Shown here: positions 1 through 26,868 of the stretch, in pieces
How positions within the stretch are numbered: the first letter of the stretch is position 1
How the letters are laid out: every line of letters begins with the position of its first letter
From: Rhizaria sp. SCN 62-66
Lineage: Eukaryota
Direction of reading: 5' to 3'
Length of the DNA: 26,868 nucleotides
Assembly (NCBI GenBank): GCA_001724265.1
Contig: MEDY01000085.1
Coordinates: 62,001-88,868 of the forward strand
Translations under genes and position numbers: made by a program
Notes under the pieces: generated by a model
Databases searched by the model: none
Told to the model about the DNA's origin: nothing
The model's input: the letters and a program-made list of their open reading frames with translations, nothing else

Positions 1-3000
1 GAAGCGTCTTGAGCAGCGCCGCGAGCAGACTCGCTCCCGGCTGCCAGCCATTTGGCGTCAGTGCCTTGACGCGCTCGTCGCTCGTGAGGTTCACAGTCAT
101 GTCAAGCAGGTGCTGCGTTGCGCCACGGCGCACGAGCCGCTGGCCCGAGGGCAGGACGGACGCCGCGTCGACGGGGCGGTGCTCAGCGGTGCTGTAGGGA
201 GTCGGAGGCCTCTTACTCGCAATGGTGCGCAGTATCTCCCGTGTGTACATGTCCTCCGCGAGTGCCGTGCTCGTTGCCATCATCAAGATTTCCAGCAGAT
301 CTTCTTGCCCCGAACCTGCGCGCATGTCAGCAGCAGACGCCGCTGGCATGACCCTGTTCACGGCGCTGTCAAAGATCTTCGCACGCACCACACTTGACTC
401 CAGAACGTCACACAGAAAGCCGGTGGCAATCTCGAGCGTCACCGCGATTGCGCTGAGCCATGACTCAGTGGGTGCGTGCGTCGCGGCAGCAGCGACTGTC
501 ATCATAGCATCCTGAATTTGCGCAGCTTCTCTAGCGACAATATCACTGGTGTCACCGTCGTTGTATCTGTCCATGTTACTCAGATTGACCTCGCCGTGAG
601 GCGGGGAGTTGCCGTGAGCCTGCATGTTCACACACTGCATAATCACGCTCTCGAGCTGCAACAGCTGGTGCACGAGACGGGCGACGATTCTTACGACGCC
701 ACAATGCAACATGTTTGCGGCGGTGGTTGAGCGCAGTGGCACGAGAGAGCGGAGTACGATGAGAATGCGGGCCAGGGCTACCCAGTGCGCGTCTACGTCT
801 TGTGCTCGTTGGCGTCCGTCAGAGTCGATCTCGGAGAGACGGCAATCATAGTTGATGCTGTTACCATGACCCTTCATCAACTCCTGTTTGGCGCACTTGC
901 GCGCATCGTTTCGGATGGCCATAATCGACTTAATGGCGCTGGGCCCCGGCAGCAGTGTCACAGTGTATATCAACGCGTGCATCAGCGTGCGAATCCCTTT
1001 CCGCCCGGCAAAGTTGTACTGTTTATACAAGCTCGCTGACGTGATGCAACGCATGACCGTTGATAGTGGTGTTAGTGTCGCAGCCTCTTTGCGCCACGCC
1101 CATGTCTGCAGCAAGCGTAGCGGGCCCGATGCAATACGTGGTGCACTAAAAAGCGAGGATGTGTACTTCACATTGTCGGCCTCTGTAGCGGTGAGGAGTT
1201 CGAGCACGTCTTTGCTTAAATCAGCACTTGTGTCGTCATTTTTATTTTCTCCACCCAGTCCAAGGTGGAAGAAAACGAGGTTCCGTAGTGATGCACCAGG
1301 AAGCTGGGCATAGACACCCAAAAAACAGCGTGCAGCCAACAGGTCATCTGATACGCGCTGATCGACTTCAGACGCCACGCGAGGGAATAAGGACCTCAAA
1401 CTGACGAGCTCATCCACGGGCACCTACTCCAGCGCAGCACGCGCAGCAACGGCACTGTCGCTGTTGCCACCCACGCTCGCGCCGCGACGGCCCTTGCGTG
1501 CGCCGCCCAAACTGGAGTGGTGCGGGATAATGTCGGCAATCGGGTCTGCACCGGACGTTTGTGAGCGCGAAGCGTTAGACAGGGTCAAATCAACGAATGC
1601 TAGAGCCTGCAATGACAACTGCGCCATTGACATCTCCGAATCGTGGTGCATCTCTTGAAAGATGATATCGAGGTCCTGATCATCAAAGTCCTCACTGTCG
1701 CCAAACCTAGCGGCCCAGGCGTGCTGTAGCGCAGCGTCGCTGGCGCCGAAGAGCTTGTCAAAGCCGTCGTCGTCGTCGTACCTGTCGCCAAAGGTGCCGT
1801 TCTTGCCGACAAGGCGTTCCTACTTGGATTTGAACGTTACTTTTTCCGTCCGAGCACGGGTGTCGCCAAGGGTAGCAGTGTCCTCACCGTCGTTAAAGTC
1901 GATGTCATTGATGTCACGCGTGTTGCTGCCATGAACGCAATTGGTTGAGCTGTTAGACTTGTTGTTATTATCAGTACCATAGATGCGCCGCGCTCGACGG
2001 ACGGTGTCCAGATTGCACCGGACAATATCATCTTCTTCAGCACTGCTGCTGTTGTGACTACCAGCGCTGCTGTCGGCTGCAGCATTTGATCCTCGCCCTG
2101 CTGTGTTCTTGCATGTGATCTTGCTCAGGCGCTCGGCTTTGTGCATCTTTGTGTTTTTGCTTAGCTCCGCAGCTGTGTCCGCAAGCCTGGCCATCGTGCT
2201 GGTAGATCGGGCTAAATTGCCCTGCAGTAGCGTCTCCTTGAGCTGGACGAGCTCTGGTGGCGGAGGAATCTTGCTCTGTGTGCACAGCGTCTCGCCCGCC
2301 ATGTAATCTCTTAGCGCGCCCACGGGTTGCATCAGCGCCTGCAGCGACTCTGCGCGGCACATGTACGCCTTGACTGGGAGCGGCAAGCCGTTCCTCTGTG
2401 TCGTGCTTGCGTTGGCAGCGAGGAGGGGCAGCTTGCTGTCCTCCAAGAACTTAAAGATGGCGATCGCAGTCGACGCGTCCTTGATAGCGGCATCGTACCG
2501 ATGCAGCTTGTTGTAGCACGCGGCGCGGCTGATGTAGTACGCCTTGTTATCTTTGCACAGTTTGATTGCATCGGAGTAGTGCTGCGCTGCTAAGACATAC
2601 TGCTCCTTCTTGTATGCCTCATTGCCGAAATCGTTTAGCTTGTCAGCATCCTGCTGCCTCGCAGCACGGAGGTTGTCCAAGTTGGTCATATCAGCCGCAA
2701 TTGCAACAAAATCGGGTCTATTAATCTGCGCGCTTAATGCAAGCTTGCTGATCTTATCTCCATCATTGGGAGCGCCTTTTTGAGGATCTAAAAATGACAC
2801 ATTAGCAGTACAGAGAAGTGCAAGAAGGAAAACAGAAACAGGAGCAATGTGAGGTTCCATATTTGACAAACATATTGATTGTCCCTCTATGAAATGCGTA
2901 ATGAAAAATCTCATGAAAAATCAGAAACGATATTATCTGCCCAAACCCGTGAAGCACATTCGACGTACCCAGCTCCCAATCCCAGAAGTCCCAAACCTCA

Positions 3001-3551
3001 AAGCTCGCGGTTATGGGCAGCTCCAACTCACCTTTTTCAACCGTTCCGAGACAAACCGCGATTTTCGCCTTGCAAAGCGCCTGCCACCTTTTGTGTTGCA
3101 CGCTGCGCCGCCAGATGACGCCGATGCGCGTCGCCTTGTCCGCGCACACCTGCAGCAGCAGCTCGCGGCGCGGCGCGGCCGGTACGGTGGGCTTCGAGCA
3201 GCGTTGGCACGTCAGATCGTACGACTGGTAGTACTCCCACTTGCAGAACTCGCAGTACTGCTGGCAGGCCGCAGGCATGCCCAGGCCAGCGCGGCCCGCT
3301 GCAGGAAGAGTAGTGTCCGCCTTGTCAGGAGCGACGCAGTCGGCAGCACCCGGACTCCCAGTGTTCGCCTGTGAAATAAAGCTCTCTGTAGACGCATCAA
3401 ATTGTGGAGATGCTTTTTCAGAAAAGAAACCGGGCATCTTTGTTGCGTAGTCGGCTTCTGGGTCGATTGTCCCATTGCAGATGCCCCGAATGAGATTGCT
3501 GATGTCTGAAGCGCGAGCGAGCGCGCCAGGATCAGCCGCAGGGGTCGACAT
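1..3551 (-). CDS. TTC12: TTC12-like TPR protein (dynein-arm assembly factor family); 3' end lies outside the window; two in-frame TAG codons, so possibly recoded or a pseudogene
   Basis: ATG at 3551. Exon 1 is 3551-2969, intron 2968-2788, exon 2 runs from 2787 to the edge. N-terminal SDISNLIRGI resembles TTC12 (DEISNLIQEM, recalled). Then CEFC-x12-CQRC, a TPR block (ADKLNDFGNEAYKKEQYVLAAQHYSDAIKLCKDNKAYYISRAACYNKLHRYDAAIKDA) and a long helical, ARM-like region. Manual translation of exon 2 shows only TAG at 1822-1820 and 1426-1424. The TPR call is firm; the TTC12 orthology is inference. Confidence 0.62.
2788..2968 (-). other. Spliceosomal intron (181 nt, phase 1) in the TTC12-like gene
   Basis: G|GTACGT donor and TTTTTAG|AT acceptor, AT-rich, with ACTGCTAAT near the 3' end. 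Joins ORFs 2802..3608 and 1820..2914 in frame (WEL-D-PQK). Confidence 0.8.
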
Positions 3552-5146: not shown

Positions 5147-8100
5147 ATGACGTCCTTCGCGGAGGCCATGGCAGCGCCTCCCACAGCGACCCTCTTCCCA
5201 CAACCCCTGCGCTCGGCGCCGCTAAACATGCTTCCGCTGCCCCCGATGCTCTCTCGGCGCGACGCCGCTGTGGTGGCGTCTCTGTCGTCCACTGCGCTGT
5301 CCGCCACCGCGGCCTCGCGCGACGCCGCGTCGGCCGTGCTCTTCAACCACCTGGACCTGCTGCGCGCGGCCAACGAGGACCTGTCGCTGCTGCTGAAGAA
5401 GAGCCACGGCGCGTTCTGGTCGCTCTGCTGCTTCGACCGCTCGATCGCCGCCTTTCTCGCCTCGTTCGCCGCGCACTACCACACCTACGTCGCGGCCGAG
5501 CAGGAGCTGCAGCAAGAGCTCCTCCTGCGCCAACAACAGCAGTCTCCGGAGTCCGCCGCGTCTGCCGGCGGCGGCGGCGGCCTGACCCCGCTTCTGCGGC
5601 AGCTGTGCCGGCGCACGCTCATGGTGCTGCTGCGTCTTTCTTACCCATCTGACCGCGAGGCCTACTCGGCGCTCGCCGTCACAACCATCACGCACGCCAC
5701 CGAGCCCTCGCCGCTGTCGCGCGCCGCGCACCTGGCCGCGCTCGCCAAGCACGCGCTGCTGCCGCCGTCCTTGCTGCCCGGGTTGCTGCTGTGCTGCTAC
5801 CCCGCGGACCCCCTGCTGCTCGCGCCCGTCGCCGCCGCCGCGCTGCGCGCGCACCCACGCGCCGCCGTCGCGCTTAAGGCATCGCTTCTCGCGGCAGTCA
5901 CCGCGGCCGCGTCTGTCACCGCGGTCGGGACCGGCGCTGCTGTGGGCGCGGAGGCCGCGGCGCTGACGGCGGCCACGGCGGCGGCCGAGGTCATCGCAGC
6001 GCTCTGCGAAGCCGCGCCGGGCCCCGCCGCCGCGTTGTTCCTGCCGTGCGCCGCCGCCGCCGCCGCTGCGAGGGCGGCGGGTAAGGTGGCCGCGGCGGAC
6101 AGCGTAGGTGCAGTACTGGCTCATTTTTGCGACCGCACGCTGCCGCGCCTCGTGCCCCGCGTCTGCGCCGCCAACACCAGCAGCAACACGAACACAGGGT
6201 CTCCATCCAATGCGTCCGTAGCGGTGCCGGCGACGGCCGCGGCGGCGCGCGCGCACCCGCGGGGCGTGCCCGCCGTGCGCGCGAGCGTGCGCGCGCTGTC
6301 CGCGCTGCTGACTCAGCAAGTCGCCGCGCTCAATCCCGCGCTCACTGCCGCGCCCGCGGTCTCGGCCGCCGCGACGGTGCAGCAAGGCGCGAAGCCGCTG
6401 TCCGCAGTGCCGGAGGGCGAGAATGACGCAGACGCCGGCGCCGATGCGGATACCGAGGCGGACCTTGCGCTGGCGGCCGTCGCTGCCACCGCATCTGCTG
6501 CTGCCGTTGCCGCCGCAGTGAGTGCGAGCGCAGGTGCGAGTGCTGGTCGTGGACCGGTGGAGGAAGAAGATGACAACGCCGGCACCGGGGCCGACTTGGA
6601 GGCCGAAATCGCGAAGGCAGAAGCCGACGTCGCGACGGCCATCGCAACACTGCGCAGTAATCGCGGCCACAGTCCTGCCGCTGCCGCCACGGCCGCCGCG
6701 GCCGAGGCGTGGCCGCGTTTATGCCACCTTCTGCTCACGGTCACCGCCGCGGTCGACAACAGCTCCGTCAGTGCAGCCAGCAAGAGCTCACCGGTGAGCG
6801 TTGGCAACGTGTTGACGCCCGCGGTGCTGCCGCTCCCGCTCTCCGGCCGCGGTCTCACAGCACTACCCCCCGTCGGCGCCGCGAACGACTCTACCTCAGC
6901 GTCTGCATCTGCGTCCGCATCTGAGCCCAGCGAGGGCAGTGTGGGCGCGCTGCTGTTCTTCGTCGACAAGCGCGCCCGCGTGCTCTTCAGTCTCGACGCG
7001 CTGCTTACCCTCAGCGAGTCCGCCGCCGAGGCCGCTGACTCTACGACTGCGACGGCGGCGGCGGCGTTCGCGCGCTCTGTCTGCGGTGCGGACGCCGTGG
7101 CGGCGCTTTTTTCCCGCGCCAGCGACGCGCTGGACCTTGCGCTGGACCGTCACGACGCCGCCGTAGTCGCCCTCGTCGCGCGCCGTCAGCTCGACCGCGC
7201 CAACAGCAAGAACAACGGCAAGAAGAGCAAGGGCAGCCAAGCCGGCTCCGGTGCGGAGTCTAAGGACCCGGCCGACATGGCGGCGCGCGTGGCGTCGGTG
7301 CAGGCGCTGATGCCCGACTACGGCGATGCGTTCGCCGCGGCCGCGCTACGCTGCTTCGGCTTCGACCCCGAGCGCACCGTCAACGCCGTCTTCGAGGGCG
7401 CGCTTCCGCCCGCGCTCGCCGCAGTCGCTGATACCAAGAACTGGATTCCTCCCGTCGCCGCCGCAGCAGCAGCAGCAGCAGTGTCTAGCGGGCGCTCGTC
7501 GTCGTCGTCAGTCAAGAGGGGCGACAGCGCTGTCAGCGCGACTGCGAGCGCGGGCGAGCTCGCGGGCGCGAGCGCCAAGTCCCTCGCCGACGCGTCCCCG
7601 ACTGACCCCGCTTTCATCAAGGCCTTCACGGCATACCTGGACCGCACGGGCCGTGTGCCGAAGGCCGCCCCACGCGCGCCCGCCGCGGCGCCGCTGCTGG
7701 CGACGGCTGAGGCGCAGGCCGCGCACAAGGCGGCGTCGCTGCGCGCGCTGGCGGCGCTGGAGCGCGACGAACTGGCCCGCGAGGCGCTGTCGCGCGCGTC
7801 CACCGGCACGCGGCTCGAGGACTCGGCGCTGGCGCTCTCGCAGACGGCGCGCGTGCTGTCGGGCGCGCGCCAGACCTTCATCGGCGAGGCCGCCGTGACG
7901 GGCGAGGCCGCCAAGGACCTGGCGCGGCTGCAGCGAGCGCTCGACCAGACCAAGCGCGAGCGCGAAGACGCCCTCAAACAGAGCAAGAGCGGCGGCGGTG
8001 GTGGTATGCTTGACGATGGTGATGACGACGGCGTCGCCGCCGCCGCCGCCGCGCGGGTCCGCCGGTCCGAAGAGCGACAGTACGAGGACGAGTACGACGA

Positions 8101-8713
8101 CGGGCTCGACGGCTACTACTCGTTCAAGCTCGACTCGACGGGGCTGCTCGAGGAGCTCGACACGGGCGCCACGATTGCGCCCGCGGGCGGGGACGGCCTC
8201 GACGCCGGGGACGCACAGCAGCATCAACAGCGGGGCAGGGGGGCTGTGGGCGGTGGCAGGGGCGGCGGCAGGGTCGCCGCGCAAGCACAGGCGCAAGGCC
8301 AGAGCTCTAGCCAGCCTCAACAGCAGCAGCAGCAGCAGCGGACGAGTAGCTTGAACCCGAATGCAGCACCTGTGCGCCGCGGCGGCGGCGGGCGCGTTGG
8401 CGGTGGCGGCGGCGGCGGCGGCGGTCTGAACCCCAGGGGCGGTGACCGCGGTGATCGTGAACATCATCAAGGCCAGCCTCAGCAGCCTCAGCAGCAGCAG
8501 CAGCAGCAGCAGCACCGGAGTGAGAACAACAGGGGCCGCGGCCACGGCGGCGACAAGAGCGGCGGCGGCGGTGGCAACCGCGGCAAAGGCGGCAACGACG
8601 GCACGACGAAGGGCAACGGCCAGGGCGCCCGCAACCGCACGAACGCGGACGGCGAATACGTGGGCAAGAAGGAGCGCAGCTCGGGCTGGCACACGAGCGG
8701 CGGCGCGAGGTAA
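5147..8713 (+). CDS. ASCC2: Activating signal cointegrator 1 complex subunit 2 (CUE-domain ubiquitin-binding protein), about 1188 aa, no intron needed
   Basis: First in-frame ATG at 5147, where GC rises; TAA stop. Motifs: EDLSLLLKKSHGAFWSLCCFDRSIAAFLASF, LCRRTLMVLLRLS, CUE domain VASVQALMPDYGDAFAAAALRCFGFDPERTVNAVFEGALPPAL, YEDEYDD, and an RGG-rich tail. These follow the ASCC2/Cue3 order. Confidence 0.88.
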   Translation: MTSFAEAMAAPPTATLFPQPLRSAPLNMLPLPPMLSRRDAAVVASLSSTALSATAASRDAASAVLFNHLDLLRAANEDLSLLLKKSHGAFWSLCCFDRSIAAFLASFAAHYHTYVAAEQELQQELLLRQQQQSPESAASAGGGGGLTPLLRQLCRRTLMVLLRLSYPSDREAYSALAVTTITHATEPSPLSRAAHLAALAKHALLPPSLLPGLLLCCYPADPLLLAPVAAAALRAHPRAAVALKASLLAAVTAAASVTAVGTGAAVGAEAAALTAATAAAEVIAALCEAAPGPAAALFLPCAAAAAAARAAGKVAAADSVGAVLAHFCDRTLPRLVPRVCAANTSSNTNTGSPSNASVAVPATAAAARAHPRGVPAVRASVRALSALLTQQVAALNPALTAAPAVSAAATVQQGAKPLSAVPEGENDADAGADADTEADLALAAVAATASAAAVAAAVSASAGASAGRGPVEEEDDNAGTGADLEAEIAKAEADVATAIATLRSNRGHSPAAAATAAAAEAWPRLCHLLLTVTAAVDNSSVSAASKSSPVSVGNVLTPAVLPLPLSGRGLTALPPVGAANDSTSASASASASEPSEGSVGALLFFVDKRARVLFSLDALLTLSESAAEAADSTTATAAAAFARSVCGADAVAALFSRASDALDLALDRHDAAVVALVARRQLDRANSKNNGKKSKGSQAGSGAESKDPADMAARVASVQALMPDYGDAFAAAALRCFGFDPERTVNAVFEGALPPALAAVADTKNWIPPVAAAAAAAAVSSGRSSSSSVKRGDSAVSATASAGELAGASAKSLADASPTDPAFIKAFTAYLDRTGRVPKAAPRAPAAAPLLATAEAQAAHKAASLRALAALERDELAREALSRASTGTRLEDSALALSQTARVLSGARQTFIGEAAVTGEAAKDLARLQRALDQTKREREDALKQSKSGGGGGMLDDGDDDGVAAAAAARVRRSEERQYEDEYDDGLDGYYSFKLDSTGLLEELDTGATIAPAGGDGLDAGDAQQHQQRGRGAVGGGRGGGRVAAQAQAQGQSSSQPQQQQQQQRTSSLNPNAAPVRRGGGGRVGGGGGGGGGLNPRGGDRGDREHHQGQPQQPQQQQQQQQHRSENNRGRGHGGDKSGGGGGNRGKGGNDGTTKGNGQGARNRTNADGEYVGKKERSSGWHTSGGAR

Positions 8714-9072: not shown

Positions 9073-9152
9073 ACTCACTCGCTCACTCAGTGAATCACTC
9101 GCTCACTCAGTCAGTCAGTCAGCCAGCCAGTGAATCACTCACTCATTCACTC
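9073..9152. repeat. Degenerate tetranucleotide tract (ACTC/AGTC/AGCC units) with two AGTGAATCACTC copies, overlapping the WDR54-like stop codon
   Basis: actcactcgctcactcagtgaatcactcgctcactcagtcagtcagtcagccagccagtgaatcactcactcattcactc read directly. Confidence 0.8.
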
Positions 9153-11081
9153 CGCGATGACGATAAGGTGGTTAGTATCGTAGGCCACGGCGACCACCAG
9201 CGCCCCTGCCTCGCCATCACTCGCGCTGTCGTCGCGGCACTCGGAGGCGTTCTCGAGCCGCACGGCGCCCGCGAGCAGGGCTTCCTCGCCGACCTTGGCC
9301 CACGCCAGCTGAGGCAGCACCGCCGCGGATGTAGACGCAGCGGCGCCGTCGGAGTGCGAGAGCGGTTGGGGCAGGGGGAAGAGCCAGCGGGACACGCAGC
9401 CGTCCTCAGCCGCCAGCGTAACGCCCACCGACACGCCAGCAGCACCAGCACCAGCGCCAGCGCCAGTGCTGGGGAGGGCGATGTCGGCAGCGACGCTGTT
9501 GATGCGGCGCACGCCCGCGGCGGCCTCGGCCACGACATGAGCGGTCAGTCCATGAGCAGTGCTATTTCCGCCGCCGCTGCTGTTGTTGTTACTGCCAGCG
9601 GTGCCCAAGACGGTGTTGAAGGGCAGCGGGATGGAGAAGGCGCGCACGTGCCCAGTGGAGTAGCCCGCCACCAGGTACGCCGCCGCGCCCAGCCGCGCAC
9701 CACTGCCATCACTGTTAGAGCTGTTGCTGACGGAGACGTTCGCGGCGGCACAAGTAAACCCCTCGCGCGGGGCGAAGTCCTGCGGCGCGAAGGCGAGCGC
9801 GGTGACCGTGAGCCCGGTCTCTGCGCCGGTCACGAACGGCAGACCGGCGTCCGAGTCGCCCTCGAGCGCGGCCCCCCCGGCCTCGGCGGCGGGCGGCGGC
9901 GCTGAGAGAGCGAGCACGGCGGGCGCCTCGAACAGGTGCAGCGGCGTCGTGGCGGCCACGGCAGCCGTGGTGGAGAGCGCGAACACGCCCACGGAGCCGT
10001 CGTCGGCGCCGACCGCGAGCAGGCCCGAGCCTGCGGGCGCGCCGGCGCCGGCGGGCGCGGTCGCGGCGGCGGCGGCAGCGGCGACGGCGGCGGCCGTGGT
10101 GACGGTGACGGTCGCGAGCGCGGTGGCCGCAGCGCCGCGCGTGGCGAGGAAAAACGTCACGGCGCCCGTGCCGCCGCCCGCAGCCAGCGCGGCCGCCGCG
10201 CCCGCGCTCGACGCAGCCGCAGCGCCGCCGCTGTTGTGGCTGTTGCCCGCGCTAGACTGCAGCGCAACGAGCGCGCCCGACTTGAGCGGGACGAGCGCAA
10301 CATGGCCCGTCGAGAGCCCGACCGCGAGCAGCAGCGCGTCGCCCGACGGGGAGGACACCGGCGCGAGCGACGTGGGGTAGACGCTGGGCCCCACGGTCGC
10401 GCCGTCGGCGGCTTGGCCGGGGGTCGCGCTGAGGGGGGCGGAGAAGTGCTCGGTGAGGGGCGAGAGGTCGATGCGATGCGAGAACAGGGTCGTTTTGCCG
10501 CGCTCGTCGTACACCTGCGTTGTGCGGAGATGTATAGCAAGATAGACAGAGATAGCAAAGATAGCAAAGGAAGAGTGACGTGACGTGAGTGAGATACAGT
10601 TGAGCGATGATTGAGCGAGTGGAAATAAAATTAGCAACACAATTGGAAGCACAAATGCGAGTATATGCGGGGGGCTGCTATTCCATACCTCAACAGCGCC
10701 GCTCTCGTAGGCGACTGCGACGGCGGGCTGGCCCTTAAACTGCAGCGCCGCGAGATGCGCGACGGCATCGCCAGTGACGGCCTGCGTCGCGAAGCGTGCG
10801 CTCTCGAGCCCGTCGTACAGCGCGGGCCGCGCCGCGGGCGACTGCAGACCCGCGCCCGCGCCCACAAGCGGCTGCGTCGCCGCATGTGCGGAGGAGACTT
10901 CGGCGCGCGGCACGAAGACGACGGTGTCGCGGTGGGCGTAAACGAGCGAGGCGGGGGTGCGAACGAGGTTGCTCGACAGCAGGGAGGGCGTATGACGCAG
11001 CTTAAGATGCAGCACAGTCGGGGAGTGCATCAGGGAAGGGGGTACCGTGGATGGCATGGCGGGGGCGGCTGCGGAGAACAT
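9147..11081 (-). CDS. WDR54: WD-repeat protein, WDR54-like, 2 exons (11081-10689, 10514-9147), about 586 aa
   Basis: ATG at 11081, TGA at 9149-9147. Blocks colinear with recalled WDR54: LKLRHTPSLLSSNL, VEVYDERGKTTLFSH, LAVGLSTGHV, LAVGADDGSVGVF, LVAGYSTGHVRAF, LAAEDGCVSRW, EALLAGA, VAVAYD. Confidence 0.72.
   Translation of the reverse strand: MFSAAAPAMPSTVPPSLMHSPTVLHLKLRHTPSLLSSNLVRTPASLVYAHRDTVVFVPRAEVSSAHAATQPLVGAGAGLQSPAARPALYDGLESARFATQAVTGDAVAHLAALQFKGQPAVAVAYESGAVEVWNSSPPHILAFVLPIVLLILFPLAQSSLNCISLTSRHSSFAIFAISVYLAIHLRTTQVYDERGKTTLFSHRIDLSPLTEHFSAPLSATPGQAADGATVGPSVYPTSLAPVSSPSGDALLLAVGLSTGHVALVPLKSGALVALQSSAGNSHNSGGAAAASSAGAAAALAAGGGTGAVTFFLATRGAAATALATVTVTTAAAVAAAAAAATAPAGAGAPAGSGLLAVGADDGSVGVFALSTTAAVAATTPLHLFEAPAVLALSAPPPAAEAGGAALEGDSDAGLPFVTGAETGLTVTALAFAPQDFAPREGFTCAAANVSVSNSSNSDGSGARLGAAAYLVAGYSTGHVRAFSIPLPFNTVLGTAGSNNNSSGGGNSTAHGLTAHVVAEAAAGVRRINSVAADIALPSTGAGAGAGAAGVSVGVTLAAEDGCVSRWLFPLPQPLSHSDGAAASTSAAVLPQLAWAKVGEEALLAGAVRLENASECRDDSASDGEAGALVVAVAYDTNHLIVIAE
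10515..10688 (-). other. Spliceosomal intron (174 nt, phase 0, stop-free) in the WDR54-like gene
   Basis: GAG|GTATGG donor and ACGCAG|GTG acceptor. AT-rich island inside GC-rich coding sequence; removal restores AVE-VYDERG. Confidence 0.82.
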
Positions 11082-11605: not shown

Positions 11606-14541
11606 ATGGAGAAGTTGGTCCCCGTGCTGAACCAGCTGCAGAGCGTGCTGGGCATCCTGGGTGCCCACTCGATCTCGCTGCCTCAGCTCGTCGTCGTCGG
11701 CTCACAGTCCTCAGGCAAGAGCTCTGTACTGGAGAACATCGTTGGCCGCGACTTCCTGCCGCGCGGCACCAACATTGTCACGCGCCGCCCGCTTATTCTT
11801 CAGCTTCTCAACACGGCCGCGGGGCTGCCCGACGGCACCTCGACCTCGACCCAGCCCGCGCCCAACGCTGGCAGCGGTGGCAGCGGCAACAGCTCTAAGT
11901 CGGAGTGGGGCGAGTTCGAGCACGTACAGGGCCGCTTCTACGACTTCGCGGCGATCAAGGCTGAGATTGAGCGCGAGACGGAGCGGCTGACGGGCAAGGG
12001 CACCGCTATCAGCTCGGTCCCCATCTTCCTCCGCGTCTTCTCACCCTCGGTACCCAACCTCACGCTGGTCGATCTACCGGGCATCACTAAGGTCGCGACG
12101 GGCGACCAGCCCGCGGACATTGAGCGGCAGATCCGAGAGATGGTCCTCGCGTTTATTTCGAACCCGAACTCGATCATTGTCGCCGTGTCGCCGGCCACGG
12201 AGGACATCGCCAACTCCGAGGCGCTCAAGATCGCGCGCGAGGTGGACCCCAAGTGCGCGCGCACCGTCGGCGTGCTCACCAAGCTCGACCTCATGGACCC
12301 CGGCACCGACGCCAAGCGCGTGCTGATGAACCAGGCTATCCCGCTGCAGCTGGGCTACGTCGGCGTTGTCAACCGTGGGCAGAGGGACATCACCGACGGC
12401 AAGCCGATCCACGCCGCGCTCGCGGACGAGCGGGCCTACTTCGAGCGCTCAGTCTACAGGTACGCGCGGATAGCAACAAATAAGATATATAAATGCGATA
12501 TGATCTACATGTCTTCTCTTTTAATGCTGTTTTCTCATGTATAGTCGATTGCAAAATATTGTCATCATTTACTGCCAAGCACAAATCATCGCATTGACTC
12601 ACTGTAATCATCCACCTGCCATGCTCCTTCTCTTTCTCTCTGCCGTGCATAATGACAGCTCGATGGCTGCGCGCATGGGCACGCAGTACCTGACGAAGCG
12701 GCTGACCGCACTGCTGCTGTCGCACCTGCAGACGTACCTGCCCGTCATCCGCCAGCAAATCCTCGGCACCATCCAGGTACGTCTCTAGTTTCTTGTTAAT
12801 TTATGCTGAAATTAATTGATATGTCGTGTTCACCAACTAATAACTGTATTAATTATTGTTCACTCATCATAATACGACTTCTCCTTGCACCGCACACGTG
12901 CTTGTTCGACTGTAATCGCACACTCGCACAGGAGACCGAGCGCGAGCTAGAAGGCTACGGCGACCCCCTGTCTCTTGAGGGCCTCTTCCAGGCCACAGGC
13001 GGCGGCATCGCTGAGAACGATGCCCTTGCCAACGGGCTCCCGCGCACGCCCGAGGAGCAGCAGCAGCTGCGCGCGCGCCTTATGGGGCCGCTCATGCTCG
13101 ACCTCCTCTCAAAGTACGTACTGCATCTATGTGAACACTGCAGTCATTCTGCAATGAACTGTTGTCATAATAAGTTTATTTTTAACACATTATAGATTAT
13201 TTTGCTTTAAATTGTGATATTACGTATAATTTCTAATTATTGTGATCTGTATGTTCTATCCTCGCATTCTATGTTCGTAACCTCTCTTTCTCAGGTTCGC
13301 CGCGCACTACATCGAGGCTTTGGACGGCCGCTCGAACGACATCTACGCCGCCGGCACCGACGCGCCGCAGCTCATTGGCGGCGCGCGCATTGCCTTCGTG
13401 TTTAACGATATCTTCGGCGCGCACCTGGACGGCATCCAGCCGTTCGACTACCTGGGCGACGCAGACATCAGGATGGCGATCCGCAACGCGACGGGCCCGC
13501 GGCCGACGCTGTTCCTGCCCGAGATGGCATTCGATCTCCTCGTCAAGAAGCAGGTACGGCGTATGCACCCTGCAATGCGATGATTACTCGCTTCAATAAC
13601 TGCTCTCATTGTGTTACTAGTCTGTTCGATCGCGTCCTTGTTTATTGTTCCGCAAAACGTCATTTGCACACACAACCTCACTCATACTCTTTCTCTTTCT
13701 GCTCTTTCTCTTTCTTGTTTTCGACTGTTTTCTTTTCGTGGCTGATTGACTGTAATGCCCGCAGATCGAGCGCCTACGGTCCCCAGCGATCGAGTGCGTC
13801 GACATGGTCTTCGAGGAGCTCCAGCGTGTGGCCTCCCAGTGCGAGTCCTCGGCCATGCCTCAGCTCGCGCGCTTCCCGCATCTGCGCGACGCGTTGCTGC
13901 AGTGCGTCAAGCGCCTGCTTGCCTCGCGCGTCGCGCCCACCAAGGCCACGGTCAACTCGCTCGTCAACATCGAGCTGGCGTACATCAACACCAACCACCC
14001 GGACTTCATCGGCGGGTCCCGCGCGCTCAACCAGCTCGCGCAGCAGCGCAAGGCGCGCGCCGCCGCCGGTGGGGCCAGCGCGGGCGGCAGCGGCGGCGGC
14101 AGCGGCGGAACGGCGGGCTCGCCCAACGCCGGTGCGGCGGGGCTGCTGGGTCCGGACGGCAAGGACGCAGGCAAGGACAAGGACGGTGGCAGCGGCGGCG
14201 GCGCGCTGGGCAGCGGCAGCGAGTTCACGCTGAAGCCCCCGAGCGACCGCGAGTCGATCGAGACCGACGTGATCAAGCTGCTCATCTCGTCCTACTTCGA
14301 CATCGTCAAGAAGACGGTCAAGGACACGGTGCCCAAGTCGATCATGCTGTTCCTGGTGAACAAGACGAAGCAGGAGATTCAGTCTGAGCTGGTGCGGCAC
14401 CTGTACAAGGAGGATCAGTTCCCGCTGTTGCTGCAGGAGGCCGACGATGTGGCCGAGAAGCGCCAGAGCTGCGTCAAACTCATCCGCCTCATGCGCAAGG
14501 CGCTCGAGGTTGTCTCGCAGATCAACGACGCACAGCTCTAA
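11606..14541 (+). CDS. DRP1: Dynamin-related GTPase of the Drp1/Dnm1(/Vps1) class; exons 11606-12459, 12659-12776, 12932-13113, 13295-13553, 13765-14541; about 729 aa
   Basis: G1 [31 protein letters not shown]2 IVTRRP, G3 DLPG, G4 TKLD. Middle domain [25 protein letters not shown] and [15 protein letters not shown]. Gly-rich variable insert with no PH or PRD domain. [25 protein letters not shown]. Exon phases add up to 730 codons ending in TAA. Drp1 versus Vps1 needs phylogeny. Confidence 0.92.
12460..12658 (+). other. Dynamin-related gene intron 1 (199 nt, phase 2)
   Basis: AG|GTACGC ... GACAG|C; AT-rich; frame restored. Confidence 0.85.
12777..12931 (+). other. Dynamin-related gene intron 2 (155 nt, phase 0)
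   Basis: CAG|GTACGT ... GCACAG|GAG; AT-rich; frame restored. Confidence 0.87.
13114..13294 (+). other. Dynamin-related gene intron 3 (181 nt, phase 2)
   Basis: AA|GTACGT ... TTTCTCAG|G; very AT-rich; frame restored (LSK-FAAHY). Confidence 0.88.
13554..13764 (+). other. Dynamin-related gene intron 4 (211 nt, phase 0)
   Basis: CAG|GTACGG ... CCGCAG|ATC; long pyrimidine tract; restores KKQ-IERL. Confidence 0.9.
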
Positions 14542-15937: not shown

Positions 15938-17155
15938 TTACCGGAGGGGGTTCTCGAGGACCTTCTTGGACATCTCGTGCTCGGCGCGGCGGCGCTGGAG
16001 CTTGGCCTCGGACGACTCCCAGAGGCGCCAGAAGTTGAGGCGCTCGCCGCCGGCAACGCAGACGGTGGTGCCGTCGGGCGAGCCGGCGAGGTGGAGAGCG
16101 CGCGAGGAGTCCTCGGCGCCGAGCTCAGCGACCTGAACGAACGAGGGCGCGCGCCAGACGGAGAGCTTGCCGGAGTTGTGCGCAGTGACGAGCTCCTTCT
16201 CGGTCGCGGCCCAGACCATCGAGGTGATCTGCGAGTCGGTCTTGACCTCGACGAGGGGAGCACCGCCGAGCTCGGTGTTGTAGGTGCGGAGGGTGCGGTC
16301 GGCCGCGCCGCCGCCGCAGGCGAGGACGTTGTCCTGCCAGGGGCACCACGCGAGCGCCTTGACGGCCGCGGAGGACTCGGCAAAGACGAAGCGCGCGGCA
16401 CCGGTGGAGGTAGCGTCCCAGACGCGGCAGGTGTTGTCGTTGGCGCCCGAGGCGAGGCGGGTGCCCTCGAGGTTCCACTTGAGGTTGCAGACGACGCCCT
16501 CGTGGCCGGAGAGGGTGGCGAAGTGGTGCTCGCGAGCGCGCACGTCGTGGTGGAAGATGTTGCCATCGTAAGCACCGGCGGAGAGGACGTTGTCGTTCCA
16601 CGCAAGGCTGGTGATGGTGGCATCGCGGCCACGGAAAGTGCGAACGCGAGTAGAGGAAGCAACGTTCCAGAGCTCGATCGTGTTGCCGACGGCGAGGGCG
16701 ACGTGGGAGCCGTCCTGCATCCAGTTCACGGCCGTGATCGGAGACTCGCGGTCCGCGCAGAGCTGGGAAGCGCTGCTGGAAGCGTGGTCCCAGATCCAAG
16801 CATCGGAGCCGAAAGCAACGGCGATCTGGTTCTGAGCGGACCAATCGAGCGTGTTGGTGTAGAAGTCATCGAGCAGGCCGGGAGCATCCAGAGTGCGCTC
16901 GCACGCAGCCGGGTAGGAGCGCGCGGAAACCTTCTGGGTGCCGCAGACGTTGGCAGACTCGTAAGCCATCTTGCACTTGTACTTGAAATCCTGAATGGGG
17001 ACCTGAGGCTTCTGCTTAGACGCCACAACGCGAACGTTGAAGTCGGCGTCCGCGACAGCAGACTCGAAACCATAATTGTTGCTGGAAACCGCAGCGAAAT
17101 TCTCACTGAAAATTTGAGCGGAACCAGAAACATTCTGAGAAACATTGGCATACAT
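15938..17155 (-). CDS. CDC20: CDC20/Fizzy-family APC/C activator (7 WD40 repeats), about 405 aa, apparently intronless
   Basis: First in-frame ATG at 17155 (AAAAATG), TAA stop. ERTLDAPGLLDDFYTNTLDWS, GNIFHHDVR, LASGANDN, AVKALAWCPWQDNVLACGGG, SQITSMVW..KELVTAH, SPDGTTV. HHDVR and WCPWQ are Cdc20-type rather than Cdh1-type. Confidence 0.9.
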   Translation of the reverse strand: MYANVSQNVSGSAQIFSENFAAVSSNNYGFESAVADADFNVRVVASKQKPQVPIQDFKYKCKMAYESANVCGTQKVSARSYPAACERTLDAPGLLDDFYTNTLDWSAQNQIAVAFGSDAWIWDHASSSASQLCADRESPITAVNWMQDGSHVALAVGNTIELWNVASSTRVRTFRGRDATITSLAWNDNVLSAGAYDGNIFHHDVRAREHHFATLSGHEGVVCNLKWNLEGTRLASGANDNTCRVWDATSTGAARFVFAESSAAVKALAWCPWQDNVLACGGGAADRTLRTYNTELGGAPLVEVKTDSQITSMVWAATEKELVTAHNSGKLSVWRAPSFVQVAELGAEDSSRALHLAGSPDGTTVCVAGGERLNFWRLWESSEAKLQRRRAEHEMSKKVLENPLR

Positions 17156-22100: not shown

Positions 22101-22253
22101 GAGCAGCAGGGCGACTTCGCGGCCGTCGTCGAGGCCCTCAAGAGCGCCGAGCAGCGCGCGCGCGACAGGGCCACCAAGGCCGAAGCGGCGGCGGTCGCGG
22201 CCGCGGCGGCCACCAAGGCGTCTTTCTCGTCCGCCTCCGGAGGGCACCACTGA
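17973..22253 (+). CDS. ArfGAP with BAR-like coiled coil, PH, ArfGAP and ankyrin repeats (ACAP/centaurin-beta/AGD type), 1426 aa
   Basis: PH domain VEKRGYLYL...FSIITPTATVTLQADSAAVADDWV. ArfGAP zinc finger CADC-x16-CLEC followed by SGVHRSLGVHISKVRS and KEAFIRAKY. Ankyrin motifs DGRSALHEAV, GWTILHYAA, LTPLAVA. N-terminal BAR-like DTPDF...KEFTLARFDL. ATG to TGA in one ORF. Confidence 0.9.
18057..18116 (+). repeat. Perfect (GGCTCT)10 coding hexamer repeat encoding (GS)10
   Basis: Counted directly. Confidence 0.95.
18567..18596 (+). repeat. (AGC)10 coding repeat, poly-Ser
   Basis: Counted directly. Confidence 0.9.
18813..18842 (+). repeat. (AGC)10 coding repeat, poly-Ser
   Basis: Counted directly. 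Confidence 0.9.
19137..19172 (+). repeat. (CAG)12 coding repeat, poly-Gln
   Basis: Counted directly. Confidence 0.92.
21849..21869 (+). repeat. (AAC)7 coding repeat, poly-Asn, between ankyrin repeats
   Basis: Counted directly. Confidence 0.9.
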
Positions 22254-22737: not shown

Positions 22738-23984
22738 TCAAAGCTTCTTGAAGAAGGACGCGATGGACTTAGTCCCAACGGCGCTCTGTGCAAGCTTGGC
22801 GCGCGCGCGGTCGCCCGCCGTCTGCTTCTCCGCGCCCGCGGCGCCCGCGCTCTTGCGCTTCGCCGCCGCGGGGTCCCGCATGATCTCCCGATCCGCTGTG
22901 AGCACGCCGCTCTCGTTCACCGCCGCGCCAGCGCCGCCCGAGGGCGCGGAGATGTCCGCCGCGGCAAACGGCGCGCCGTCGTGCTTGGTGAAGGCCGCCA
23001 GCAACGTCTCGGTCATGGCGGGGGTGAGATACTCGCTTGCGAAGCCTAGAGCGGCCGCAAGCACGCCGGACGCGGCCTCAGACGCGGCACGGCGGCCAGT
23101 GTACGCATCAGTGCTCGTCAGGGCACTGCTGCTGTTACTGTCGCTGGCTTTGGTGCTAGTGGCGGGCGCGAAGGCGGGGAGCGCGGCCATCGCGGCGGCG
23201 GTCTTGGCGACCTTGCGGGTCAGCAGTGCCAGCACCAGCTCGTCGCTCAGCCGCACGGCCGACTCTGCGGTCAACGGCAGCTGCGGCGGCAACGCGGCGC
23301 CGGCGTCCGCGCTGCCGGCGGCGCTTGGCTCGCCGGAGACGGTGCAGACGAGGCGCAGGCGCGCGACGGCGGCGGGCGCGGCGAGGAAGTGGTCAAGCAG
23401 CAGCGGCGTGCATGCGTGGCCCGTCGCGGCGGGCAGGAACACCTGCGCCAGCAGCGCAAAGCGGCCGGGCTCCTCGGCGGTCGGCGCGGCGCGGCCGCGC
23501 GCAGCGGCGAGCCAGGGTAGCGCGAGCAGAAGCGGGTCCACGGGCGTGGCGAGATAGAGCGCCCCGTGGCTCGATACCGAGTTCTCGATGAACCAGCTCG
23601 TGGGGTGAGTCTCCGCGTCCGCGGGCGCAAGCGTGTTGATCTCCAGAAACGCGCCGGGCAGCACCAGCAACTTCACAGTCTTGCCGTAGTGCTTCGGGTG
23701 CGGCCAAGAGATAATCTGGCCGCGCGAGATGGTGCGCGTCGCAGTGTCTTCAGCGTCTACTGATACAGCGGCGCTGGAGGCCTCGCCACGCAGCTGCGCG
23801 CTCACACCGGCGTCTGGAAGAGGGGATGGAAGGCGTCAAGTAAAGGAAATAATAAAGGACAGGATCAAGGCTATGTACGACATGAAGCTAAGATTTCATG
23901 CGACACGGCAGGGATCAAAGCAAGTGCAAACGAGAAGGGAGAAATCGGGGACGTACGCTTGATAAAGAAGACCGTCTGGGGCAT
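22738..23984 (-). CDS. RNASEH2B: Ribonuclease H2 subunit B; exons 23984-23957 and 23813-22738; about 367 aa
   Basis: ISWPHPK...FLEI...SWFIENSVSSHGALYLATPVDPLLLALPWL is the RNase H2B/Ydr279 signature. C-terminal PIP box GTKSIASFF. A 28-nt first exon (MPQTVFFIK) supplies the ATG; TGA stop. Confidence 0.9.
23814..23956 (-). other. Spliceosomal intron (143 nt, phase 1) in RNASEH2B
   Basis: C|GTACGT donor and CTTCCAG|AC acceptor; pyrimidine-rich; in-frame join. Confidence 0.82.
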
Positions 23985-24428
23985 ACTGATCGTGTATAGC
24001 GTTGCAATTACAATAAAAGACTAAACGTACAAATTTACTGCAGTGCAGAAAATAACACTTGTTGAGGAACTATTGTCACTGAGATTTTGACTGCAGAAAA
24101 TATCGCGATTTGGGCGCGGAGCGATGACCAGTCACATTTTTCGGTCCAATCCCAAAGTGACGGGCAGCCTCGTTTGTAACGGACGATTTCGTTGTTTTGG
24201 AGTGATTCAGGGCTGTGGTAGCTTTTGATATAATGTAATTAAGATATATTGTTGTCGTGAAGTTTTGATACTTGGAAACTAAGTGGCATTTCGTACCGCG
24301 GTGTTGTCACTCTGTTTTGTCTCACTTTTCCTTGCGCTGCTTGCTCAAACCTTATTGTTGCCTCAGCGTCCCAAAACACATCAGATTGCACCGCACCGAG
24401 TGGGTACGCGTTTTTTTCCTTCACACAA

Positions 24429-26868
24429 ATGTCGCAACTGGCGCCGGTAGAGTACTACCCCGTCTTTGCGATCATCGACAAGTCGCTCTTGCCGCAGGAG
24501 CTGTCCACCGACATCCTCGCCAACCTGCTCAACAGTGATGATGGCGCTGAGTTCGTCGTCGTGAGCCGCGAGCAAGTCGATGACGTCTCGGGCAAGGACA
24601 AGAAACGCCGCTCCGCCGCGGGCGACACTGCGCGCGGCAAGGGCGCCACGGGCGCGCTGGGCGCCGCAGCCGCGGCGAAGCCCGACGGCGCGAAGAAGCG
24701 TCTCGGTCCCATGGGCAGCAAGGCTGCGGCCGCCGCCGCCGCAGCCGCAGCCGAAGAGGAGAACGAGGAGGAGGCGCTCATCACCGTTAACGACGACATG
24801 CTGGAGCGCATTAAGGAGATTATCCCGCGCGTGCTGGAAGAGAAGGCGACGGAGCTGACTGAGCGCCGCCGCCTGCAGCTCGAGGCTGCCCTCGCAGGCC
24901 CCTCCGGCTCCAACAAGGGCGGCCGCGACAACAGCGCCAACAGCAAGCGCCGCGCCTCCACCGTCGCGGGCCTCTCGGGTGCCGGTGCCGGCGGCAACGC
25001 CTCCGCGCAGCCCGGCGGCGCCGCGGGCGCGCAGGCCCTCGGGAGCGTGCGCTCGTCGTTTTCGCTGTCTGGCCTGCCCGCGCCGCCCGCGTCGTCGGCG
25101 TCCGCGGCCAAGCCCGTCCGGCCCCCGTCCTCGGGCCCGCAGCGGCCGCCCTCAACGGGCAACACGCGCCGCGCCTCAACCGTTGACGGCTCGGCCCCCG
25201 CGTTGCCCTCTTCCGCGGCCGCGGCCGCCGATAGTACCGAGGCGGGGGCGCCGGCGCGGTGTCCTATCTTCGTCGTACTTGAGGACGTGGTTCGTAAAGC
25301 GGGCGATGCGCAGCGCCTGGCGGGTGTGGGGATCGAGCTCGATGCCATCCTTATTCTCCGCGTCGAAAACACCGCGGGTGTGCCCGTGTACTTCGCCTCC
25401 CAGGCTGACGCACGCGAGTACGGACAGGGCTACCTCTCCTCGCGCCCGCGCTCCAACATTGGCAACGGGCCCTCCGCCGCCGCGCTCACAGCCGCGGCCG
25501 CTGCGCCCGGCACCGCTGGCTCCGCTGCCGCTGTCGGCGCAATGCCGGGCTCCGCGAGCGCAACGCCCGTGCTGGGCGGCCGCTCCGTGTCGCCCTCCCC
25601 CGCGCTCGGCGCTGCTGCTGCTGCGGCCGGCGGTTCCGCCTCGGGCCTCGGCCCCAACTCGCCCTCCTCTTCCGCTGCCGCTGCCGCAGGTGCCGGCGCG
25701 TCGCGCGACGGCGCCGGGAGCGCGCTTGGCGGCCGCCGCTCCGCCGCGCGCACGCCGTTGTCGGGCGCGCGGGGCCTCTCGCGCGGCGCCGGCGCCGGCG
25801 CGGGCGCGGGCGCTGCGGGCGCGGGGCGCGCGGGGCCGGGTTCCGCGGGCGACGACGACGGGCTCGGTCTCGGACTGGGCTTCTACCCCGGCTCCGGCGC
25901 CGCGGGCGCGGGCGGCGCGGGCTCGGGCTCGGGCTCGCGCGCGGTGGCGGCGCCGTCGGCAACGCCCGGCGTGGCCGTGGTGTCCATGTCCACAGGCGCC
26001 GCCGCGGCCGCGCTGTTCCACATCCAGGATGCCGCACTGGCCGCCGAGGACTTCGCCACCTTCCCGGACCTGCCTGGCGAGTTGGCCGTGCTGCTGTCGG
26101 TCGACACGCGCTTCACCAACCTCGCGTGCCTTTTCGTGCCAGTCAAGCAGCCGCTCGCCGAGCCCGCGCCTCTGCCGCCCGCACGCGGGCGCGCCGCCGC
26201 TGCCGCAGCAGCCGCAGCCAATACCGCGGCCGCGGCCGCCGTCGCTGGCGCCACAGGCGGCGCCGGCGCGTCCGCCGCATCTGGCCGCCTTGGCGCCCCC
26301 GCTGGCGCCGCCTCTGCCGCCGCGGGCGCGTCGCTGTCGTCGCCGCCCGGCCGCGGCCCCCGGTCCGCGCTGGGCGCCGCCGGAGCCGAGGAAACGCTGC
26401 CTCTGACTGGTGCGGCCTCGCGCCGACGCGCCGACGCCGCGGCTGCCGCTGCCGCCGCCGCGGCCGCCGCCGCCGCGACGGCCGTGGACCCCCTCGCGCC
26501 GCAGTCGCTGGACGCGGCCACGGTGGCACGCCACGCGGCGACCGAGGTGCGGCTGTCGCTGCGCGGACTTGCCGCCGCCAAGGCGCAGTTCCAGGCCTGG
26601 GCCGCCAACGTACCCGTGACCGAGTTCCCCATTGCACCCGTCTCCGCGGCCTCTGCCGCCACAACGGCCGGCGACGCGCAGGACGGCGCGGCGGCGGCGG
26701 CGGACCGGCGGCTGTACGCGCACCTGCTGGACCGCGTGCCGGGCGCGCTATGCTCGGTCCCTGTGCTCGTAACGGCCATGTTCCACCACGTCGCCGCCGC
26801 GCACCTTGTCGAGACGGCCGCCGCCGCGGGCGCACTGCCGCCCACCTTCGGGCTGCCGGGCGGCGCCG
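24429..26868 (+). CDS. SPAG17: SPAG17/PF6-like axonemal central-pair protein, 5' part; continues beyond the window
   Basis: ATG at 24429 (MSQLAPVEYYPVFAIID...). The frame is open to the window edge and so is absent from the ORF track. DRRLYAHLLDRVPGALCSVPVLVTAMFHHV resembles the recalled SPAG17 block D.RYY..LL..IP.E.ISVPLILHCMLEQV and is preceded by PIFVVLED...GIELDAIL and AQFQAW. Coding status is firm; the identity rests mainly on one motif. Confidence 0.6.
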   Translation, partial: MSQLAPVEYYPVFAIIDKSLLPQELSTDILANLLNSDDGAEFVVVSREQVDDVSGKDKKRRSAAGDTARGKGATGALGAAAAAKPDGAKKRLGPMGSKAAAAAAAAAAEEENEEEALITVNDDMLERIKEIIPRVLEEKATELTERRRLQLEAALAGPSGSNKGGRDNSANSKRRASTVAGLSGAGAGGNASAQPGGAAGAQALGSVRSSFSLSGLPAPPASSASAAKPVRPPSSGPQRPPSTGNTRRASTVDGSAPALPSSAAAAADSTEAGAPARCPIFVVLEDVVRKAGDAQRLAGVGIELDAILILRVENTAGVPVYFASQADAREYGQGYLSSRPRSNIGNGPSAAALTAAAAAPGTAGSAAAVGAMPGSASATPVLGGRSVSPSPALGAAAAAAGGSASGLGPNSPSSSAAAAAGAGASRDGAGSALGGRRSAARTPLSGARGLSRGAGAGAGAGAAGAGRAGPGSAGDDDGLGLGLGFYPGSGAAGAGGAGSGSGSRAVAAPSATPGVAVVSMSTGAAAAALFHIQDAALAAEDFATFPDLPGELAVLLSVDTRFTNLACLFVPVKQPLAEPAPLPPARGRAAAAAAAAANTAAAAAVAGATGGAGASAASGRLGAPAGAASAAAGASLSSPPGRGPRSALGAAGAEETLPLTGAASRRRADAAAAAAAAAAAAAATAVDPLAPQSLDAATVARHAATEVRLSLRGLAAAKAQFQAWAANVPVTEFPIAPVSAASAATTAGDAQDGAAAAADRRLYAHLLDRVPGALCSVPVLVTAMFHHVAAAHLVETAAAAGALPPTFGLPGGA

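Follow-up and report, generated by a model that had tools for sequence, protein, structure and literature searches.

Among the nuclear genetic codes in print in which UAG alone has been reassigned, the accessible parts of the reports give Leu, Gln, or Ser as the new meaning, and UAG is read as Glu only where UAA is also Glu or is Lys (PMC5304391, PMC9161772, PMC11687900, PMC10553269). In particular, Gln with UAA and UGA as stops is reported for Iotanema spirale, Hartmannula sinica, Trochilia petrani, and Protocruzia tuzeti (PMC5304391, PMC9161772, PMC11687900), and Leu is assigned in the rhizarian exLh (Sainouroidea) and in the TARA phyllopharyngean ciliates. Here, we describe a stretch of 26,868 nucleotides from Rhizaria sp. 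SCN 62-66 (GCA_001724265.1, contig MEDY01000085.1; G000:C85:62001-88868, hereafter the window), part of a 34.9-Mb assembly of 714 contigs, in which a gene with tetratricopeptide repeats (TPRs) is crossed by in-frame TAG codons. This gene and genome-wide counts, which overall cover <3% of the assembly, indicate that UAG is almost certainly a rare sense codon throughout the genome and not a stop, and that it is probably read mainly as glutamate in a nuclear variant code that keeps UAA and UGA as stops. The initial annotation had proposed a rare sense UAG from this one gene; the reassignment is wider than that, as it appears to be genome-wide and accompanied by its own tRNA and an altered release factor, eRF1. 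In a literature search that returned mostly titles and the beginnings of abstracts, with few subscription journals, no announcement was seen of a code in which UAG means Glu while UAA and UGA stop translation, and this combination was not found described for a nuclear genome; the same material, mostly titles and abstract openings, held no cercozoan reassignment beyond exLh.

On the minus strand of the window, the codons from position 2788 to position 2 form a frame of 929 codons whose only stops are two TAGs, with no TAA or TGA, and a recount thus confirmed the initial annotation on this point. The first TAG (1820..1822, minus strand; FKSK-X-ERLV) is in a linker that aligned poorly, and the second (1424..1426, minus strand; AALE-X-VPVD) is at the start of a conserved region. 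The remaining five frames over the same stretch contain 18–50 stops apiece. The GC content at third codon positions (GC3) is 0.65, 0.69, and 0.66 in the segments around the two TAGs, and this steadiness indicates that the coding character is kept past either of them. As had been claimed, the frame is open beyond the second TAG: it reaches the window edge, passes a third TAG outside the window (C85:60744), and stops at a TAA (G000:C85:59770), so that 1672 codons extend from position 2788 to the terminal TAA, along which there are three TAGs but no earlier TAA, no TGA, and no frameshift. In runs X3 (study P2) and X4 (study P3), contigs cover all three TAGs with no variant letter, and contigs of run X5 cover the first TAG with the same letters; this check used contigs from 4 of the 17 listed runs, run X1, the possible source, being left out. 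Because the X3 and X4 contigs, which come from two separate studies, agree, the TAGs of this gene are not assembly errors. The sole RNA run used, X11 (poly-A), gave short pieces and no contig over any TAG.

The rival in which the standard code holds, with the TAGs produced by nonsense mutations in a pseudogene, by splicing or editing, by assembly errors, or bypassed by gene-specific programmed readthrough, is very improbable. The intact frame and the letters shared by the X3 and X4 contigs make a pseudogene and an assembly error, both named as rivals in the initial annotation, unlikely explanations. A TAG-free paralog on C113 speaks for the standard code; the initial annotation had regarded an intact paralog together with a silent copy as evidence against reassignment, and the first half of that pair is what was found. 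As the standard code would have it, an intron acceptor also accounted for many domain-edge TAGs, among them 4 of 9 in the kinases and 7 of 10 in another domain set. Against it stand the long frame described above and the in-domain TAGs, the absence of TAG from gene ends, the TAG inside the only eRF1 found, and the existence of a tRNA with a CUA anticodon. The standard code is therefore largely refuted already.

The use of stop codons was surveyed over 614 kb (177 coding segments, 165,614 codons; ~1.8% of the genome). Where the first stop lay ≤12 codons past the end of the coding signal (n = 121), it was TAA in 63 cases, TGA in 55, and TAG in 3, whereas TAG accounts for 20% of the stop triplets in the 3' flanks (P = 7e-9); filtering for donors left TAA 50, TGA 41, and TAG 1. 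TAA was the commonest stop in the survey. All ten TAG terminator candidates at any distance were inspected and none was credible, seven being located after a GT donor and three being off-frame or at an acceptor. Within genes, nine of 142 kinase matches hold TAG only, of which five are continuous coding sequence and four are intron acceptors; TAA or TGA occurs in 5 of the 142, and both of the two that were inspected are read-throughs of introns. Further in-frame TAGs were found in another kinase, a Ras-like domain, two UCH domains, and a ubiquitin-derived domain, and the in-domain TAGs are bordered on both sides by continuous domain sequence. The TAGs in DEAD, kinesin, myosin, and dynein matches were intron acceptors or intronic and unusable, and scans of the ABC, AAA, and SNF2 families yielded no usable TAG. 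The codon is rare, with 25 filtered sites in 154,817 codons, and the unfiltered counts fall with rising GC3 (25, 8, 6, and 1 in successive bins), which agrees with the expectation that TAG would be scarce in GC3-rich genes. For the assembly as a whole, about 1,500 in-frame TAGs would be expected. TAGs in intact genes, the lack of a credible TAG terminator, the CUA tRNA, and the changes in eRF1 together point to a rare sense codon.

A pattern search gave eight matches (control, 20), and one of these proved to be a tRNA whose anticodon is CUA, hereafter tRNA(CUA). Its gene (G000:C84, L064:1489-1561, minus strand) scores 58 bits with Rfam RF00005, encodes no CCA, is followed by a T-run, and is located on a contig that also bears kinase and kinesin genes. 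Among 31 distinct tRNA sequences from the fetched loci, a part of the full complement, its best match is the organism's own tRNA-Glu(CUC), at 47 of 73 positions (64%), followed by tRNA-Glu(UUC) at 53%; its identity to tRNA-Gln is 44% and 39%, and to the Leu tRNAs 43%. It has the first five acceptor pairs (including U1-A72, C2-G71, and C3-G70) and A46 in common with the Glu tRNAs, and its variable loop is short. Identity elements for glutamyl-tRNA synthetase (GluRS) include a short variable loop, A46, and the pairs U11-A24 and U13-G22; A36-A37-A38 in a tRNA invites N6-isopentenyladenosine (i6A) modification, which is an aid to suppressors. ARAGORN labelled the gene Pyl, a label that stems from the anticodon; the gene fits the ordinary tRNA model at 71 of 71 positions and is Glu-like. 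The tRNA searches of the assembly found no Gln-derived CUA tRNA, an intron-bearing or unassembled copy being possible, and a wider pattern for intron-bearing CUA tRNAs gave only three non-tRNA matches in a weak search that missed the known tRNA(CUA). Viral contigs contained no exact match to the 5' part of tRNA(CUA).

A family search recovered one eRF1 gene and one pelota-like gene, and no second eRF1 was found. The eRF1 gene (G000:C63) carries an in-frame TAG at human position 107, in the middle of domain 1, and the same TAG recurs in a separate metagenome contig (L174) that is identical at 1626 of 1626 bases. In 117 homologs, a set of top matches in which animal and green algal sequences abound and which are not independent of one another, column 107 is E in 106, D in 10, V in 1, and Q in 0; the alignments omit three multi-domain eRF1 matches and one GluRS match. 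Three substitutions, T32S (T in 117/117 homologs), G57S (G in 117/117), and L124M, are each unique among the 117, and T58K and M34V are common to P0005 only. The NIKS motif, E55, S70, L69, and YxCxxxF are unchanged. The closest eRF1 relative, P0005 (84% identity), retains T32 and G57, and the steps of the code change are thus directly testable. According to the available text of earlier studies, the G of UAG is contacted by T32, which Iotanema replaces by Gly (PMC5304391, PMC9161772), and Tetrahymena, Holosticha, and Oxytricha have Ser in place of G57, the latter read by eye from the text of Fig. S2, where the columns may be off (PMC5304391). As a separate observation, two metagenome eRF1 relatives (L187 and L188) have an in-frame TAA and three (L192, L193, and L195) have an early frame change, which suggests other ciliates with variant codes or frameshifting.

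Glutamate is preferred over glutamine because the single CUA tRNA is of the Glu type and the best-conserved TAG site is a Glu column. When the residues were scored with Pfam profiles against X over eight sites, the sums were E +12.5, Q +8.6, K +7.2, Y −5.1, and L −7.9 bits, and Leu scored below X at six of the eight. Leucine was rejected on the difference between −7.9 and +12.5 bits for Glu over these sites and on the 43% identity of tRNA(CUA) to the Leu tRNAs. Over ten in-domain sites, of which the last two are neutral, Glu exceeds Gln by 3.7 bits in total. None of the ten TAGs is at a conserved Gln column and one, in eRF1, is at a clear Glu column; by comparison, 8 of the 24 own Gln residues of eRF1 and GluRS are in columns of ≥85% Q, and none is in a column of ≥85% E. 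TAGs between acidic codons gave 22 matches genome-wide, three firmly in the coding frame and one probably so, and the centres of local acidic runs (n = 187) are E in 45 cases and Q in 1. A rough model gives 0.2–0.4 acidic-run cases under purely Gln origin and ~3 with 30% Glu origin, and a ratio of mixed origin over pure Gln of ~20 at k = 3. The CaMK and USP5 TAG sites were set aside, as their solved homologs were uninformative about the residue.

Several points weigh against glutamate decoding. tRNA(CUA) is single-copy, the assembly may lack further CUA tRNAs, and the evidence for the reassignment comes from DNA sequence. In eRF1, column 107 is relaxed nearby (V in P0005 and Q in 1 of 18 metagenome loci), and T32S keeps the hydroxyl, the predicted effect on UAG recognition being unproven. 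The acidic-run count also fits context-blind placement (expected, 1.7). The neighbor residues of the 25 filtered sites are far better described as CAG-like (log-likelihood −80.8) than as GAG-like (−106.4), and the best context mixture is 90–100% CAG-like, a 70:30 mixture costing 0.3–1.5 bits and a 50:50 mixture 1.6–3.5 bits. This context test left out 17 of the 42 internal TAGs: 13 were judged intronic, at a segment edge, or at an exon junction, although two or three of these, in exon 1 of paralogs, later looked coding, and 4 were in a doubtful open reading frame (ORF). That ORF (G000:C2:19074-19791, plus strand) is weakly coding, has four TAGs, is perhaps a retroelement or pseudogene, and was not counted. 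The kinase hinge site supplies 2.4 of the 3.7 bits, and the nearest solved homologs have S (four of five alignments) or Q (one of five) there, so it was given less weight and no longer taken as decisive for Glu. Finally, Q occupies one kinase TAG site in NEK1 and a TAG position in TNNI3K, the organism's own ubiquitin has CAG where the ubiquitin-derived domain has TAG, and paralog C113 has Q opposite two TAGs.

The CAG-like contexts and these Q residues favor the rival in which UAG is glutamine, as in Iotanema, with the Glu-bodied tRNA(CUA) charged by glutaminyl-tRNA synthetase (GlnRS) or with a Gln-type CUA tRNA that was not assembled. The base after TAG is also C in 17 of 33 cases, which matches CAG rather than GAG statistics; the C bias relative to CAG is not significant (P = 0.22) and makes no case for selection of a leaky context. 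E. coli amber suppressors can be charged by GlnRS. However, the body of tRNA(CUA) is of the Glu type and no Gln-derived CUA tRNA was found in the assembly searches, the eRF1 column is without Q among the 117 homologs, TAG occurs in acidic runs, and none of the ten in-domain TAGs is at a conserved Gln column whereas a third of the own Gln residues of eRF1 and GluRS are. Glutamine is on balance an unlikely reading, though one with genuine support, and it had been favored in the initial annotation, where Gln was said to read naturally at both sites in the window. These two sites do not by themselves reveal the encoded residue: the residues opposite the first TAG in the paralogs are R, N, or D, and those opposite the second are Q, G, K, or S.

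In another rival, decoding is mixed: tRNA(CUA) would insert Glu, the near-cognate tRNA-Gln(CUG) would insert Gln, and eRF1 may terminate at some UAGs, so that TAG would persist only at sites able to bear either residue as well as some loss, with the UAG of eRF1 acting as a feedback sensor. The near equality of E and Q, whose scores differ by ≤0.8 bit at 9 of the 10 in-domain sites, is in keeping with this, as is the ratio of one CUA tRNA gene to five copies of tRNA-Gln(CUG). TAG is very rare and nearly absent from high-GC3 genes, yet eRF1, the codon use of which is strongly biased, carries one. The eRF1 TAG is directly followed by AAA (L059:1596-1591, minus strand; G000:C63), the sole AAA among the 32 Lys codons of the gene; in high-GC3 genes, AAA accounts for 74 of 2197 Lys codons. 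This UAG-AAA resembles a hypothetical feedback site, although it is one case picked out in hindsight. A young reassignment served by one tRNA gene would account for the rarity as well, and genes with 3–5 TAGs remain intact, both of which count against mixed decoding; we consider it improbable. In a related and similarly doubtful scenario, the code change of a cercozoan flagellate would be young and incomplete, with the Glu-derived tRNA(CUA) competing against near-cognate tRNA-Gln and a half-blinded eRF1, and UAG-AAA would be a negative-feedback switch: it would truncate eRF1 once termination at UAG became too strong and so stabilize the new code, as a eukaryotic counterpart of prfB autoregulation. 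In the accessible parts of the reports on bacterial prfB and plant eRF1-1 autoregulation, the level of the release factor could be sensed by a stop codon within the mRNA that encodes it (PMC13245932, PMC5397192); here, in contrast, the codon is an internal in-frame UAG of a eukaryotic eRF1, and a regulatory role is hypothetical. The weights given to glutamate, glutamine, mixed decoding, and the standard code are matters of judgement.

If UAG is read mainly as glutamate, eRF1 would bind UAG poorly, and tRNA(CUA) would be transcribed, charged by GluRS, and able to outcompete termination. The CUA anticodon would not read UAA, which would leave UAA free to remain a stop, and TAG would be kept rare because one tRNA gene serves it. 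Some TAG codons would come from synonymous GAG>TAG changes, but more of them from CAG>TAG transitions at positions that tolerate a change from Gln to Glu, and the latter would produce Gln-like TAG contexts under Glu decoding.

Compared with the described systems, as far as they are covered by the portions of the reports available, this genome resembles the Iotanema group in its UAG-only reassignment and Iotanema itself in a change at T32, which is T32G there and T32S here; the CUA tRNA here is Glu-derived. In the phyllopharyngeans, 78–91% of genes use UAG, whereas the codon is very rare here (PMC11687900). The UAG=Leu codes of exLh and the TARA ciliates are likewise UAG-only, and exLh belongs to Rhizaria, the likely group of this organism; its eRF1 has Ala at G57 according to the text of Fig. 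S2, where the columns may be off. Unlike these codes, Leu has the worst of the Pfam sums here, tRNA(CUA) is Glu-bodied with a variable loop that is short, and L69 of eRF1 is intact. In Oligohymenophorea sp. PL0344, UAG is Glu and tRNA(CUA) is closest to tRNA-Glu (69–93%), as here (PMC10553269), but UAA is Lys, UGA is the stop, and there are ten CUA genes, whereas here UAA is the commonest stop and one CUA gene was found. The peritrich ciliates and Blastocrithidia also read UAG as Glu, but UAA is Glu too (PMC11687900, PMC5304391), and in Blastocrithidia UGA is Trp, whereas it is a stop here. UAG-only reassignments are rare, and in this case a single genome contains the in-frame TAGs, the suppressor tRNA, and the altered eRF1. 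The very low use of UAG suggests an early stage, which bears on the codon-capture and ambiguous-intermediate models; should glutamine prove true, the charging of a Glu-type tRNA with Gln would be remarkable on its own account.

The window gene is probably intact, a TTC12-like TPR gene with about 1,870 codons. Exon 1 (2969..3551, minus strand) starts with ATG at 3551, contains a CxxC..CxxC motif and, just before the donor, a WDFW motif, and has an alternative donor at 3031 that leaves the phase unchanged. A phase-1 GT-AG intron is predicted at 2788..2968 (minus strand), its donor at 2968 and acceptor at 2789-2788 preserving the frame. Exon 2 (1..2787, minus strand) encodes the TPRs, a low-complexity linker, and a long conserved region, and extends off-window through the third TAG to the TAA; its best TPR_1 repeat (Pfam PF00515) is at 2456..2536 (minus strand; E = 7e-07, above the cut-off). 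There are four more paralogs, on C113 and C223, with 39–46% identity among the five; their exon 2 is free of TAG in two cases, and contains three TAGs in another and a single TAG in the last. Three form a tandem array (G000:C223:28165-10164), one member of which apparently lacks the N-terminal TPR part, and the fourth is at C113:21372-27007; exon 1 TAGs are present in two paralogs. The exon 1 motifs are common to three paralogs and to P0250, a relative from another record, in which one chain combines the exon 1 motif with the TPRs and the C-terminal region. TTC12 proteins likewise have N-terminal TPRs followed by a long region, although they have ~700 residues against ~1,870 here, where the family has expanded to five paralogs. 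The TTC12-like identity given in the initial annotation stands as far as the TPRs (Pfam) and the language-model features of P0250 go, in which TTC12-like clusters rank 2–3 and 5–7 (score 0.91), whereas the expected ARM repeats gave no Pfam match in the window gene; the label seems a fair one, backed only by those features of the relative.

A profile of the C-terminal region had six matches among 1.84 billion proteins, five of which are this genome's own genes. The public protein entries P0246-P0249 are fragments of this family, and P0247 and P0248 terminate precisely at in-frame TAGs, showing that standard gene calling already cuts the proteins of this organism at TAG. A neighboring frame of 2700 codons (L039/L040, G000:C85:57392-49290, minus strand) has five TAGs, three of them beside Gln runs. 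The six gene ends in the window are all TAA or TGA: TAA after a long plus-strand ORF without a Pfam hit (8711..8713, plus strand), TGA after a minus-strand ORF without a Pfam hit (9147..9149, minus strand), TAA after dynamin (14539..14541, plus strand), TAA after CDC20 (15938..15940, minus strand), TGA after a BAR-PH-ArfGAP-ankyrin gene (22251..22253, plus strand), and TGA after a Ydr279_N (RNase H2B-type) gene (22738..22740, minus strand). Ala-rich long ORFs without a Pfam hit occupy 5174-8713 (plus strand), 9147-11081 (minus strand), and 24402-26867 (plus strand).

The genome contains at least 12 dynein heavy chain loci, suggesting a flagellate. The four runs that match best come from bioreactor, wastewater, or unlabelled metagenomes, the habitat being judged without the runs of small share. 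In a GluRS tree of 40 rows, a long-branched clade of environmental proteins joins Paulinella with a support of 96 in the Shimodaira–Hasegawa-like approximate likelihood ratio test (SH-aLRT), and by this one gene tree the organism is likely near Cercozoa. A search for the polyubiquitin junction, used as a test for Rhizaria, found only monomeric copies in six loci of the 23 ubiquitin matches. Divergent ubiquitin monomers with a short extension past the double Gly were found at L124, L125, L127, and L128. At L126:1501-2085 (plus strand; G000:C681), the ubiquitin-derived domain with a TAG is fused to a Peptidase_S74 chaperone domain (E = 2e-9), and this fusion may belong to a mobile element. A divergent 18S rRNA gene extends over 4445 bases (L062, G000:C706:4459-8903) with about four large insertions, which by eye resemble group I introns; the first, a long one, may hold an endonuclease gene.

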